Source: Escherichia coli
GTDB lineage: Bacteria; Pseudomonadota; Gammaproteobacteria; Enterobacterales; Enterobacteriaceae
Assembly: GCF_017348835.2 (NCBI RefSeq)
Contig: NZ_CP071375.1
Strand: one strand, 5' to 3'
DNA: 64,000 nucleotides
Each line of letters starts with the position of its first letter. Within the stretch, counting starts at the first letter, position 1. This document shows positions 7,244-11,725 of this stretch, in pieces. Position numbers and translations under genes: made by a program. The notes beneath the pieces were generated by a model, which worked only from the letters and a program-made list of their open reading frames with translations, was not told where the DNA came from and searched no databases.

Positions 7244-8848
7244 TCAATCTGCTGAATAGTTTATCGCATGTAATTCTCGGGTCATATAGTGGATACCCTC
7301 CTTCTTTTCTTTCATCCCCTCTTGCCTCACCATAAAAGCAAACGAAAAAATTGCTGAACGAGTTATCTGAAGTAAATGCTCAAAATGGTGAATAAAATCA
7401 CTTTCTTTGATAAAAAGAATATCTTCTATTAGTTGATAAGATTCGTAAATGTCCTCAGGTTTATCACTTTTATGTACAACTAAAAACTTATGCTCTAAAC
7501 CATTGCGCCATTCTTTATAGAAAGCCAACTCCCCACCCTTATCTTTATTCAGGTCGGTAGCAATACTGTACAGCGCCAGAAGCCCTGGTGATTTTACCTT
7601 TTCAAATAATTGTCTTCTGTTATCAACATCTAACTGCCAGAAATTCTGAAAATAGATATTCTTCTGAGATGTACCTTTTTTTGTTGTTGGGTAAAGATTA
7701 TAAAGTTCACATATGGCTACCGCAATTTTATCAAGAATACCAAAGCAAAGACGAAATGCCGTCCTGATTTTTTCAATTTCTATTCCTAAAACTTCGTCAT
7801 TATACAATTCCAGAAAATGGCTTTCGTACTTAATGTAATCCGTATTTTGTGGATGAAGATAATCAAAATAAAGATGGCGTGCGAGTGAAAACTCCGATTT
7901 AAGGCGATTTAATACCATCTCCATGGGAATGATAAAATCACCTGTTACACCGCCTCGCGAAGCAATCACAAGATCATCTGTAGCACTCCCTACACATGGG
8001 CAATACAGGCCATGTTCTGATAAAGTCAGATGATTTCTAAGACAAAACTGTCGATATGGGCTTAACGCTTCGAACTCTTGTTGTGTAAGTGCTTCATCGT
8101 GTTCGTCAGTTTCATCATCAACAGCATATTCTGCGATTTTCTCGTTAGTCTGCGCTATGCGTTCTAAATAGAACGATTCCCATTGTGGTGGGATATTTTT
8201 TGATACAGACGCTTTAATATATCCTGCTCTCACTTCTTTTAGTAACTTGATTGAAAATGAAGATGAAATAAGATTGAGGACCATAAGTGACATCGAACGG
8301 TTGACCCAAGCCTGTGGTATATCTAATCCCTTAAGATTGGTAAGATCATAATATCTCAATGACTCACTGAGCCGAAATTGACTTCTTAATGAATTAGCCA
8401 AATTAACAGATAGTTCAGCCTGAAATTCCTCCTGCTCCTCAGCAGATAGCTTAAAAGAACGCCAGTAGATATTTTTTAAGGAAACCAATTCTTCTATCGA
8501 TTTGAATGTATGGTCATTGGGGTTAGTAATGCTCACCAGATTAGATAGCGCATTACCATAGTTATAATAGTAAAGGCACTCTCCTAACACTGATATAAAT
8601 GCTTCTTTGTTATCTTCCATCAGGTTGCAACCAAGCTCTGACGCATTTTTATTATTTTGCATCTGCCCGATGTCAACAAGAGCACCCGCAATGTTCGCCA
8701 ATACTATAAAGTAGTTATCGTTCCTGATTGTTATTCTTTCCAGTTTGTTCAGGAACGCAACTGACTGTTGATAAGATTCGTCAAATCTTCCAATATCAAC
8801 CAGTTGGCTAATGAAATTACTTTCATCGACAAGTTCTTTTGTTATCAA
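7244..8848 (-). CDS. Large hypothetical protein with C-terminal HEPN-like motif (candidate RNase effector)
   Basis: 534 aa, strongly AT-rich coding sequence, TTG start 12 nt after the upstream gene's stop. C-terminal EWRNGLEH fits the HEPN R-x4-H motif. Confidence 0.6.
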   Translation of the reverse strand: MITKELVDESNFISQLVDIGRFDESYQQSVAFLNKLERITIRNDNYFIVLANIAGALVDIGQMQNNKNASELGCNLMEDNKEAFISVLGECLYYYNYGNALSNLVSITNPNDHTFKSIEELVSLKNIYWRSFKLSAEEQEEFQAELSVNLANSLRSQFRLSESLRYYDLTNLKGLDIPQAWVNRSMSLMVLNLISSSFSIKLLKEVRAGYIKASVSKNIPPQWESFYLERIAQTNEKIAEYAVDDETDEHDEALTQQEFEALSPYRQFCLRNHLTLSEHGLYCPCVGSATDDLVIASRGGVTGDFIIPMEMVLNRLKSEFSLARHLYFDYLHPQNTDYIKYESHFLELYNDEVLGIEIEKIRTAFRLCFGILDKIAVAICELYNLYPTTKKGTSQKNIYFQNFWQLDVDNRRQLFEKVKSPGLLALYSIATDLNKDKGGELAFYKEWRNGLEHKFLVVHKSDKPEDIYESYQLIEDILFIKESDFIHHFEHLLQITRSAIFSFAFMVRQEGMKEKKEGIHYMTRELHAINYSAD

Positions 8849-8860
8849 AATAAATTTTCC

Positions 8861-11725
8861 TTATACAGAGGATTTCGGTGCTTCAACAGGAGGTATGCCC
8901 TCACAGGAGACATCTATAACTATCGCTGATAAGCGGTCTCTTTTATCAACCGGCACAGTTTCATTAAGCATATTTTCCATTGCACTGGCGTTTTCAGGTT
9001 GAGATGTATTTTTCGCCAAATGAGGCAGGGAATTCGGTCGAGCAGAACCAAACCAAAAAACCAGATAGATACCGTGACCAGCAGCATCGGGGTTTTTAGT
9101 ATAAAGCTTGTCCAATTGCCCATTAAGTGCAGTCCAGACATCACGATGATAATCACGCTTTATCTCGATAGGTATTTTTATCTGCGGTAGTGAAACAATG
9201 ATATCTGCCCTTTTATCAGAAACCATGTGTCCTTCTGGTTCACAGCTTATTTTTAATGGATTAAGCCGGACACGGAGTAAATCCAGAAAAATATTACGGC
9301 AACTCTCTTCAGGTTTAGGCGTTAGGGTACGGCCATAGCTGTCTTCATTCCAGAATTGCTTATAAATATCGGTATTTTCATTGGCAATTCGGTTAGAAAT
9401 ATCCCGTATATGATCAAGCAATAATGAGTAAAGATCCATTATGTTGGCAGGCGTTTTATTCATCAATGTACTTACAGTCTGCTTCCAGTCGGCATGATGG
9501 AACTGTGATTCTCTATAACGAATTTTCTGATTGCTTTGGGCATGTGAGAGATGATCCCGATAACTTTCACATTCAGGCAGCAGTAATAAGCGCTCAAGTA
9601 CTTCACTAGCATCGTATAAAGAAATAGAAGAAACTTCGCTAATCAATGCTCTGATAAATTCTGCATAATCCCAGCTATTTCTTGAACCATGACTTTCATC
9701 TACTGGATGATAAGCATTAGGGAAATGCGTTGCTGAAACTCTAATGATGGTTTCTAATTGAATTAAAGAAAGCTCTTGATTATTATTTTCTCTCCGTCTT
9801 CTGGTATTACCAGTTAACTCACGCACAATCCAAATGATCTCAGGATCTGACTTAGCCTCAGATACAAACAAATCATAAGCCTGTTCGGGTTGTAGCAAAT
9901 AACAACACGATAACCAAATATGATAGTTAACCTTCCTTAATACACCTCGTCGATTAACCATAAGTTGAGATAGTTCCAGTAATTCTTCGTGTATCTGTGG
10001 ACGTGCCAGTAGCCATTCAACCAAGCTTTGTGTATGATTAATATCATCAGGATATTTTTTAGCAAAATACATAACTAAAGGGATGACGTGAGAATCTCGT
10101 AGTGATTTCTCATGTAGAACATAGTTCAATGCCATAATATGCTGAAATTTATTTTTCATACAAAAGTCTATTATATAACTATATGTTTCTATGAAAAGAT
10201 CTTCTCGATACAGTATTACATACTTTTTCCATGGTATTGAATATATAGTGATAACATTGTCTTCTTTAACATGGATTGGTAATCTCGCATCCAATGTTAT
10301 TAACATTTTTAGCAATTCATTATCCCAAAGAGTTATGTCATCTTCCATTTCCCATAGTTCGTCACTTCCCGCCAATATAGCATACCACCATTCATAATAT
10401 TCACCTTTTATTAAGGAGTCATTAATATCATCTATAGACGGAAGATCTGCACGGCCTAATAGAGCCACAAGACCAGAAATGGCATCTACAGCACTTTTAT
10501 CCCCAAGATTCGATGAAAGACGCTCAAAGCAGGATAGTTTTTCATCTACATCGTTATATAATGCATAATAAATATATGCAACATGCTTAAGCCATCCTAA
10601 ATGTTCACCCGAAACAATCTGTTCTCTTAATTGCTGAAATTCTACTTTATCTGAATCAATAATATTTTGTTTTTCTCTCTCCCTTTCTATCCTGCTGATA
10701 TTAATTTTTACCCGCCAATCATCAATCTCACAGACTAATGCACCTTCTAAAATAGAAAAAAGCTCATTACTCATTCCACCATAAGTAATAAGAAAATCAA
10801 ATACCTGCTGTGGCGGAGCATCACAACTCCAAAGAGTAGGAAATGCTAATTGATAAATAAACTTTGTCTTATCTGTAGTACCTCCATTACTCGATAAATA
10901 GTGTGTGAAACGGGATAATAAAAGCTCACGAGGAATGACGCCAAATGTACTTTGTCCAAACTCATGTAAAAAAAGATATCCTGTATTATATCTAGTAAAA
11001 GATGTTATTGCTGCATCTATAATATCTTCATGCTGCCAATCACGTTCTTTTAGCAACTGGACAATCTGGGTTGTTTTATTATCAAAACTACTATAATGCT
11101 CTTTATACCAGTGATGAACATACAGACATATCCATATCTGTTCAGCAGTATACTGATCTTTCGTATTAAGGATAATCACTAGACCACTTTCAATATAATA
11201 CAAAACTTCATGACGATTTCTTGGTGATGAATACCAGTTGTCTATATTTTCATTTTGGTATTGATAGAGGCATTCAAATATTGTCATTATCTCCTCGGCA
11301 GGAACAACATCAATTATCCCCCATAGAGATCCTACCGGCAAACGTTCTTTAATAATACTTAAGGTATCAATCAGGAGTTTTGCCACATCCAATGCAGAAA
11401 AATAATCTTTATAAAGCAATTGAATAATGTGGTTACGCAATCGAATATTGTCGTGATTAATCTCGTTCAATTCAGAATAAATTTTGACGACTTCTTTAAT
11501 ACCTGATAGACCCGAGTGTATTAATGCCGTTATCGCTTCTTCTTTCTCGGCATATGAATGACGTTCAGATTTAACAACATCAATTAAATCCTCATTCAAT
11601 GACAATATTGGGGTTGCGACAGATAGAGATTCGAGAATAAGCATACGCAGAGAAAATCGCGATTTGGGATCATGAATAATCAGGCGCAAGTGTGCTTCCA
11701 TCTCCTCGCTCACGAAGCCATTCAA
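8861..11725 (-). CDS. Large hypothetical protein with C-terminal PD-(D/E)xK-like nuclease motif; N-terminus may be truncated by the adjacent IS
   Basis: 954 aa, AT-rich, mostly helical-looking. C-terminal RADIIVSL...IPIEIKRD fits D-x(n)-E-x-K of the restriction-endonuclease fold. No Walker A motif found. Frame stays open upstream to a stop inside the IS end, so the true start is uncertain (TTG at 11725 or ATG at 11701). Confidence 0.6.
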   Translation of the reverse strand: MNGFVSEEMEAHLRLIIHDPKSRFSLRMLILESLSVATPILSLNEDLIDVVKSERHSYAEKEEAITALIHSGLSGIKEVVKIYSELNEINHDNIRLRNHIIQLLYKDYFSALDVAKLLIDTLSIIKERLPVGSLWGIIDVVPAEEIMTIFECLYQYQNENIDNWYSSPRNRHEVLYYIESGLVIILNTKDQYTAEQIWICLYVHHWYKEHYSSFDNKTTQIVQLLKERDWQHEDIIDAAITSFTRYNTGYLFLHEFGQSTFGVIPRELLLSRFTHYLSSNGGTTDKTKFIYQLAFPTLWSCDAPPQQVFDFLITYGGMSNELFSILEGALVCEIDDWRVKINISRIEREREKQNIIDSDKVEFQQLREQIVSGEHLGWLKHVAYIYYALYNDVDEKLSCFERLSSNLGDKSAVDAISGLVALLGRADLPSIDDINDSLIKGEYYEWWYAILAGSDELWEMEDDITLWDNELLKMLITLDARLPIHVKEDNVITIYSIPWKKYVILYREDLFIETYSYIIDFCMKNKFQHIMALNYVLHEKSLRDSHVIPLVMYFAKKYPDDINHTQSLVEWLLARPQIHEELLELSQLMVNRRGVLRKVNYHIWLSCCYLLQPEQAYDLFVSEAKSDPEIIWIVRELTGNTRRRRENNNQELSLIQLETIIRVSATHFPNAYHPVDESHGSRNSWDYAEFIRALISEVSSISLYDASEVLERLLLLPECESYRDHLSHAQSNQKIRYRESQFHHADWKQTVSTLMNKTPANIMDLYSLLLDHIRDISNRIANENTDIYKQFWNEDSYGRTLTPKPEESCRNIFLDLLRVRLNPLKISCEPEGHMVSDKRADIIVSLPQIKIPIEIKRDYHRDVWTALNGQLDKLYTKNPDAAGHGIYLVFWFGSARPNSLPHLAKNTSQPENASAMENMLNETVPVDKRDRLSAIVIDVSCEGIPPVEAPKSSV

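Follow-up and report, generated by a model that had tools for sequence, protein, structure and literature searches.

Introduction

STAND proteins generally require their nucleoside triphosphatase (NTPase) for activation. Walker A mutants are examples of this requirement (PMC13092281; Kibby et al., 10.1101/2022.07.19.500537), and the STAND/NLR paradigm, in which an NTPase switch is combined with a variable sensor and an effector, has been set out for bNACHT and Avs proteins and for DS-8 (10.1101/2022.07.19.500537; 10.64898/2026.01.04.697583; PMC13092281). Among bNACHT proteins, C-terminal effectors are the less frequent arrangement (Kibby et al., 10.1101/2022.07.19.500537). One catalogued antiphage gene of the NLR-like kind is eruA, which is represented in NCBIfam by NF058535 ("NACHT domain-containing antiphage protein EruA"), an equivalog model of 1,318 positions with a curated cut-off of 1000 bits. 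In this work a stretch of 64,000 nucleotides of Escherichia coli (contig NZ_CP071375.1, assembly GCF_017348835.2; hereafter the window) was analyzed, in which two adjoining open reading frames (ORFs) at 7244-11725 had been taken, in a sequence-only reading, for an undescribed defence module pairing a DNase-like with an RNase-like protein and lacking an ATPase. Our analysis indicated that the locus very probably descends from a two-gene defence operon, in which eruA preceded a TPR-HEPN gene and which decayed when an insertion sequence (IS) mediated a deletion in eruA.

The second gene of the pair belongs to the LA2681 family of HEPN proteins, for which a conserved R-x4-6-H motif and, in a table, the description "fused to TPR" were given by Anantharaman et al. 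2013 (PMC3710099). An LA2681 HEPN protein is also listed as a predicted novel defence gene in the DefensePredictor supplement.

Results

The larger reading frame is the 3' part of eruA

Both ORFs, of 534 aa (7244-8848) and 954 aa (8861-11725), were found on the minus strand with a gap of 12 nt, at the sizes and spacing that the sequence-only reading had reported. The 954-aa ORF matched NF058535 with E=1.4e-194 and 649.6 bits, below the cut-off, and only positions 399-1318 of the model were covered. The intact protein of E. coli N17 (1,354 aa) covered positions 1-1318 with 1129.8 bits and passed the cut-off. A 5-kb query was then compared by megablast with 5,426 complete E. coli genomes, eight of which carried the locus. 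In two of them, the pig isolates PE164 and F2_81, the locus was truncated and practically identical (100.0%) to the window over the query, and the region was annotated as "hypothetical protein", "LA2681 family HEPN" and "IS3 family transposase". In the other six, the human isolates N17, N24, N39, N47, N64 and MS20657, it was intact (98% nucleotide identity over query positions 17-4761), and the gene was annotated as "NACHT domain-containing protein".

In the intact allele, GDPGAGKT at residue 35 follows the Walker A pattern of P-loop proteins, GxxxxGK[ST], and LFIDALDE at residues 74-81 follows the Walker B pattern hhhhD[GA]hDE. Neither was found in the 954-aa ORF of the window, in agreement with the earlier remark that it had no Walker A motif. 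Since the intact allele passes the EruA model and the window ORF is its 3' part, the apparent "ATPase-less" architecture is an artefact of pseudogenisation. By its profile match, the ancestral gene is a member of the already named EruA family, and the window copy a decayed member rather than a new system; the proposal of an undescribed, ATPase-free pair was thus contradicted for the larger ORF. No Pfam match was obtained for the 954-aa ORF, and PHROGs gave no matches. PADLOC v2 returned for this ORF only LmuA at the chance level of E=0.011, and nothing for intact EruA or the HEPN protein. PADLOC, which had been suggested as a check, therefore assigned no system to either protein, and it was the NCBIfam profile that named the larger one.

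An IS629/IS1203-type element mediated the deletion

The window and N17 were nearly identical up to position 11760 and showed no similarity past it, and the terminal repeat of an IS starts at 11761. This element had the features of the IS629/IS1203 type, namely a length of about 1.3 kb, TG...CA terminal inverted repeats, and orfA and orfB with a programmed frameshift; it was annotated by PGAP in PE164 as "IS3 family transposase, programmed frameshift", and thousands of its matches were annotated as IS1203. The triplets flanking it differed (GAT and CTG), which means that it was not bordered by a target-site duplication. It abutted eruA at codon 390, leaving 965 of the 1,354 codons. The family's block of invariant N-terminal residues extends to F392, so the loss of codons 1-389 took away virtually the whole NTPase module. 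On its other side lay a second truncated and unrelated gene, an Ig-like adhesin pseudogene, so the IS joins two truncated genes. A 1.4-kb segment comprising the 5' portion of eruA and the sequence upstream of it was present only in the six intact genomes and absent from PE164 and F2_81, and tblastn of EruA residues 1-389 against the window returned noise only. The missing target-site duplication, the truncated other flank and the absent 5' DNA together point to an IS-mediated deletion, not a simple insertion. An inversion was also considered and was rejected on the absence of the eruA 5' DNA from both truncated genomes and on the tblastn result. Thus, the IS629/IS1203-type element mediated a deletion of eruA codons 1-389, the start codon, the promoter and adjoining island DNA.

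The reading frame of the truncated gene (eruA') was open to the junction at 11760 and ran into a stop codon nine codons into the IS, and no ATG preceded the junction. Accordingly, neither the TTG at 11725 nor the ATG at 11701 chosen by PGAP is a native start; both are cryptic. With the switch, the start codon and the promoter lost, eruA' is most likely an inert, non-functional stub, and the intact HEPN gene would have been deprived of its operon promoter. The truncation was probably recent, as neither ORF carried further lesions.

A second copy of the 1,310-bp element, 99.9% identical and in the opposite orientation, was located at 24253-25562; such inverted copies at a distance of 11 kb could cause the segment between them to invert. 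In N17, the intact eruA is adjoined by a divergent gene for a 518-aa AAA ATPase (locus L001, 14156-15712), which had GajA/AriA-like PADLOC matches (AriA, E=1.2e-23) and no obvious partner gene, and which is part of the DNA deleted in the strain of the window. Degraded eruA genes were also observed elsewhere: in Bradyrhizobium erythrophlei the gene was split into ORFs of 600 and 695 aa (L012, 45-3904), in B. campsiandrae a 273-aa fragment was found (L013, 7794-8615), and in a deltaproteobacterial metagenome-assembled genome it was split into 1,214 and 108 aa (L027, 4590-8533). Decay of eruA is thus not unique to the window.

Anatomy of the EruA family

A search of 5.8 billion proteins yielded 937 EruA homologues. 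Full-length members measured 1,335-1,400 aa, occurred in Enterobacterales and in many alpha-, beta- and gamma-proteobacteria, and mostly carried the precomputed Pfam tag DUF8371. In an alignment of 26 full-length sequences, down to 36% identity, the invariant residues included G38, G40 and K41 of Walker A, D77, D80 and E81 of Walker B, and a C-terminal cluster of E1229, E1231, D1241, E1254 and K1256; the N-terminal NTPase with its Walker motifs was present in every member. Identity of distant homologues to E. coli EruA was 52% over residues 1-392, 26% over 393-1140 and 49% over 1141-1345, and few invariant columns were seen between residues 392 and 1083. Intact EruA therefore consists of an N-terminal STAND-type P-loop NTPase, a fast-evolving middle and a C-terminal PD-(D/E)xK domain.

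The C-terminus was predicted to adopt the restriction-endonuclease (REase) fold with its alpha-beta-beta-beta-alpha-beta core. In the model of this domain the D stands at the start of one strand and ExK inside the next, and the complete series E...D...ExK is present in the window ORF, in the motifs EPEGHM at residue 829, KRADI at 838 and IEIKRD at 853. The suggestion of a PD-(D/E)xK-like core near the C-terminus was thereby borne out by both the predicted fold and the invariance of these residues in the 26 homologues. Sequence-profile searches of the PDB gave only spurious EGFR-kinase matches for the C-terminal domain, with no sequence-level relative, and only generic P-loop matches for full-length EruA and its N-terminal module. 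For the latter, the best Pfam matches were weak (AAA_16, E=6e-4; nSTAND3, E=4.6e-4), each in one of 12 members. The Walker B form hhhhDAhDE of EruA resembles what we take to be the NACHT signature of Koonin and Aravind (2000).

Seven diverse EruA homologues, paired with a HEPN gene or not, all scored above the NF058535 cut-off, so the HEPN gene lies outside NCBI's definition of EruA. Some homologues of about 1,395 aa (P0087, P0088, P0115 and P0116) carried, besides DUF8371, a precomputed match to PF00816, which we take to be the H-NS family; this suggests an added DNA-binding domain.

The partner is a TPR-HEPN protein of the LA2681 family

Residues 307-510 of the 534-aa protein matched Pfam PF18733 (HEPN_LA2681) over model positions 8-204 of 204 with E=1.2e-40. 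R448, E452 and H453 were invariant, and N449 nearly so, in 32 HEPN homologues down to 45% identity, and the assignment of this protein to the HEPN class by its R-x4-H motif was upheld. The AlphaFold model (pLDDT 85, pTM 0.88) placed a helical solenoid at the N-terminus, and with Foldseek this half matched TPR solenoids such as KLC1/2, LGN and Rap regulators. A TPR-like solenoid together with R-x4-H agrees with the published description of the family (PMC3710099). No named defence system was assigned to the protein in PADLOC v2, NCBIfam or PHROGs.

Between the TPR and HEPN domains, at residues 277-288 (8006-8020 region), an invariant S-E-H-x-x-Y-C-x-C-x-x-S cluster was observed (S277, E278, H279, Y282, C283, C285 and S288), which could be a metal-binding or regulatory site.

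Linkage of eruA and the HEPN gene across genomes

The order eruA, 12 nt, HEPN gene was found in five loci from different genera or samples, namely E. coli N17, Citrobacter youngae, Klebsiella quasipneumoniae, Serratia rhizosphaerae and a Logan metagenome contig; the K. quasipneumoniae locus lay in the same type of island, with MazEF, HTH_35 and an integrase. Identities to the window were determined for the C-terminal 946 aa of EruA and for the whole HEPN protein. They were 96.9% and 97.6% in N17, 85.7% and 95.3% in C. youngae, 77.9% and 94.8% in K. quasipneumoniae, and 58.6% and 75.8% in S. rhizosphaerae, and the rank order of divergence in these four genomes was the same for both proteins. 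All five examined members of the HEPN clade with at least 75% identity were linked to EruA, and at 55% identity or below all five were solo. The HEPN gene is thus a clade-specific companion of EruA in enterobacterial-type loci.

In most other lineages each gene was met alone. Solo EruA was found in S. marcescens (70% identity) and S. fonticola (50%), in a 51% identical metagenomic homologue and in most alpha- and beta-proteobacterial homologues. Solo TPR-HEPN proteins of about 50% identity occurred in mobile elements of Budvicia, Cellvibrio, Pseudomonas, Vibrio and Comamonas, with the Cellvibrio copy in an integrative and conjugative element together with AbiE, Fic and ArdA and the Comamonas copy in a P4-like satellite; EruA was near none of these five loci.

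In Bradyrhizobium sp. OAE829, where EruA is 37% identical, a gene for a 428-aa T6SS_Tle1-like (DUF2235) lipase-type protein stands in the place of the HEPN gene, 161 nt downstream on the same strand (L003, 10284-11570; also in L004). Such a substitution hints at an exchangeable effector-like gene downstream of EruA.

The putative sensor and C-terminal part of EruA was seen to diverge much faster across species than the HEPN protein. Between the window and N17, eruA showed 29 nonsynonymous and 18 synonymous codon differences, and the HEPN gene 13 and 13. Both observations would fit diversifying or relaxed selection.

Composition and island context of the locus

The G+C content of 7244-11725 was 0.365, against 0.479 in the window as a whole and 0.555 at positions 1-7000, close to the one-third that had been estimated by eye. 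The ORF pair is hosted in a tRNA-Asn integrative island of E. coli, and the surroundings of integrases, IS elements and a toxin-antitoxin pair noticed in the sequence-only reading were matched by the PGAP annotation of the identical PE164 region, where integrases, IS66, IS3 and MazEF/PemK are recorded. The coordinates of the features are collected in Table 1.

Downstream of the HEPN gene, a gene for a 153-aa hypothetical protein and an overlapping one for a 68-aa helix-turn-helix (HTH) protein were observed at 6209-6873 on the minus strand. Hairpins resembling terminators, at 7153-7130 and 7058-7045, separate them from the HEPN gene. In E. coli N17 and K. quasipneumoniae the same gene pair also stands beside the EruA-HEPN operon. 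Further AT-rich stretches (G+C 0.35-0.40) were located downstream of the Ig-like pseudogene at approximately 16500-18500 and 21000-23000, one of which overlaps a glycosyltransferase-9 gene region annotated in PE164.

Table 1. Features of the eruA'-HEPN locus and its surroundings in the window
Feature	Positions	Strand	Basis or remarks
PemK/MazF toxin gene (110 aa) and MazE/AbrB antitoxin gene	5270-5860	-	PGAP on identical PE164 region
TPR + HEPN_LA2681 gene, 534 aa, intact	7244-8848	-	ORF, Pfam PF18733, AlphaFold, Foldseek
HEPN motif R448-N-G-L-E-H453 (R-x4-H), putative catalytic	7490-7507	-	Motif position in the 534-aa ORF
Intergenic spacer (operon junction)	8849-8860	-	TAA-GGAAAATTTATT-TTG; AAGGA Shine-Dalgarno-like, overlaps the upstream stop codon
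eruA', codons 390-1354 and stop; without NTPase module, native start and promoter	8861-11760	-	NF058535 match, N17 alignment
PD-(D/E)xK C-terminal domain of EruA, putative effector	8864-9508	-	Predicted fold and invariant residues
Putative catalytic E829/E831, D841, E854, K856 (intact: E1229/E1231, D1241, E1254, K1256)	9158-9241	-	26-sequence invariance
Central EruA region (intact residues ~393-1140), poorly conserved, putative sensor	9506-11760	-	26% identity among distant homologues
IS3-family element, IS629/IS1203 type, 1,310 bp	11761-13070	+	Left inverted repeat TGAACCGCCCCGG, right inverted repeat CCGGGGCGGTTCA; no target-site duplication
IS orfA	11815-12141	+	ORF list
IS orfB	12141-13028	+	ORF list
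Ig-like adhesin pseudogene, 5'-truncated	13071-16498	+	PGAP on PE164: "internal stop; incomplete; missing N-terminus"

Discussion

Our results argue strongly for a decayed operon, and the action of its intact form can be sketched by analogy with the Avs and bNACHT STAND proteins. The central region of EruA would bind a phage-derived trigger, NTP-dependent oligomerisation through the NTPase would bring the nuclease domains together, and the activated C-terminal REase domains would then cut DNA, with abortive infection or direct restriction as the outcome. As for the TPR-HEPN protein, the simplest view is a self-contained unit of a putative sensor (TPR) and a putative RNase (HEPN), and such a sensor-effector role is probable because in most bacteria the gene is solitary and lies in mobile elements. 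Within the enterobacterial clade, where it would be co-transcribed with eruA, it may supply an additional (RNase) effector or defend independently as a second line.

Several observations weigh against a decayed two-gene operon. Among 19 distinct full-length EruA genes whose downstream sequence was long enough, a survey of all collected loci with a hidden Markov model placed the HEPN gene beside only 4, and EruA was solitary in about three quarters of the surveyed loci; the genome-wide locus scan, made with the C-terminal domain alignment, returned 21 loci, so that the co-occurrence statistics rest on small numbers. The expected adjacency of the two genes across genomes accordingly held in the five enterobacterial-type loci and did not extend to the whole family. 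The remnant ORFs carried no further lesions over 946 codons (EruA) and 534 codons (HEPN), and some residual activity might have persisted. In a consensus promoter scan, fewer sigma-70-like sites were found than in shuffled controls, a result that is uninformative on expression of the remnant. The Pfam NACHT match of the N-terminal module was not significant (E=1.1); the "NACHT" label, which rests on NCBI curation and the Walker B signature, was not confirmed independently, and the module is treated here as a STAND-type NTPase. Finally, the publication behind the names Eru/EruA and Hyo/HyoA was not found in literature searches, where the matches to Eru/EruA were unrelated (a SlyA-type regulator "EruA", "Eru" replication types of Stx phages, and plant names). 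The names Eru and Hyo are not used in the DefensePredictor and STAND-survey papers, and EruA accessions and family names are absent from the supplements of Kibby et al. and of the STAND preprint (10.64898/2026.01.04.697583).

The alternative that survives best is that EruA and TPR-HEPN are independent single-gene systems which share a cassette, with one dead and one possibly live solo HEPN gene in the window. It is a real possibility, although we lean against it. The solo occurrences of both genes speak for it: EruA lacks the HEPN gene at most full-length loci and in S. marcescens and S. fonticola, and TPR-HEPN stands alone in the mobile elements of five other genera. EruA homologues also pass the equivalog cut-off with or without the partner, and EruA has a nuclease effector of its own, as predicted from the model. 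It is less easily reconciled with the 12-nt spacing and the overlapping Shine-Dalgarno sequence, which were kept in five loci down to 59% EruA identity, or with the linkage to EruA of every examined member of the HEPN clade at or above 75% identity and the congruent order of divergence. At the opposite end of the question, enterobacterial EruA and TPR-HEPN could form a coupled NLR-like system with two effectors, the built-in PD-(D/E)xK DNase and a separate HEPN RNase recruited or licensed by the activated NTPase through its TPR part, which we consider unlikely. On this reading, distant EruA homologues may have swapped the effector in trans for others, for example the Tle1-like lipase gene of Bradyrhizobium, and the orphaned HEPN gene of the window might still act alone.

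A functional ATPase-independent DNase and RNase module, with the 954-aa and 534-aa proteins acting in defence or abortive infection as they stand, was judged very unlikely. Both ORFs are uninterrupted, all putative catalytic residues are intact, the operon spacing is kept, two complete genomes share the identical locus, and binding and cutting would in principle still be open to a stub that retains the variable region and the nuclease. However, the NTPase with its invariant Walker motifs was retained by every full-length homologue down to 36% identity, and on established knowledge STAND proteins generally depend on it. Moreover, the 954-aa ORF is bounded by the end of an IS instead of a true gene start, both the native start codon and the promoter were deleted, no promoter-like enrichment was found in the consensus scan, and the truncated form was limited to 2 of the 5,426 complete E. 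coli genomes, in nearly identical copies. As for a toxin-antitoxin-like addiction pair in which EruA would restrain a HEPN toxin not serving in phage defence, HEPN domains are common as toxins (PMC3710099) and other toxin-antitoxin pairs lie in the island, but HEPN homologues mostly stand alone with no adjoining candidate antitoxin, the putative antitoxin is truncated in the window and yet the HEPN ORF is intact in viable strains, and a 1,354-aa NTPase-nuclease is atypical for an antitoxin, so this was judged highly improbable.

The significance of the decayed eruA-HEPN operon is mainly corrective, as a seeming ATPase-free DNase/RNase module turned out to be a pseudogenised copy of a catalogued NLR-like antiphage gene, which shows how a gene truncated through an IS can pass for a new domain architecture when only sequences are scanned. 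The layout of EruA, with NTPase, variable middle, C-terminal REase domain and the invariant residues of each conserved part, gives direct targets for mutation. To our knowledge, LA2681-type HEPN proteins have no experimentally defined function, and the TPR-HEPN clade that is tightly and repeatedly linked to eruA offers a testable handle on their role. The conserved EruA-HEPN operon of Enterobacterales is possibly the one new element of the locus.

Comparison with known systems

The TPR-HEPN protein resembles the LA2681 family (PF18733) in its R-x4-6-H motif, its TPR fusion and its mobile or defence-type contexts; it differs in the link to an EruA NTPase gene, which is not mentioned in PMC3710099. 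HyoA (NF058534), another NACHT antiphage protein, is distantly related, with similarity to parts of the NTPase-proximal and C-terminal regions; at 155 bits for the intact allele and 63 bits for the window ORF, far under the 1200-bit cut-off, neither is a member. EruA (NF058535) is the closest described system: the intact E. coli allele, 98% identical in nucleotides to the window, spans the whole model with 1129.8 bits, whereas the window copy lacks residues 1-389 with the NTPase and falls below the cut-off.

EruA, as known here from sequence, shares with bNACHT (10.1101/2022.07.19.500537) and Avs (10.64898/2026.01.04.697583) proteins the plan of NTPase switch, variable sensor and nuclease effector, the variable middle being apparent in its conservation profile and the gene being located in a mobile island. 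It differs from them in giving no PADLOC v2 match and no significant Pfam NACHT match, and its layout is unlike the usual bNACHT one, with the NTPase placed at the very N-terminus and the REase effector at the very C-terminus. The REase domain is only 8-14% identical to the effectors Can2, Cap4, NucC, HamA and SduA and to the type II enzymes BamHI/BstYI/OkrAI/BglII, and in EruA it forms the C-terminal module of a STAND protein.

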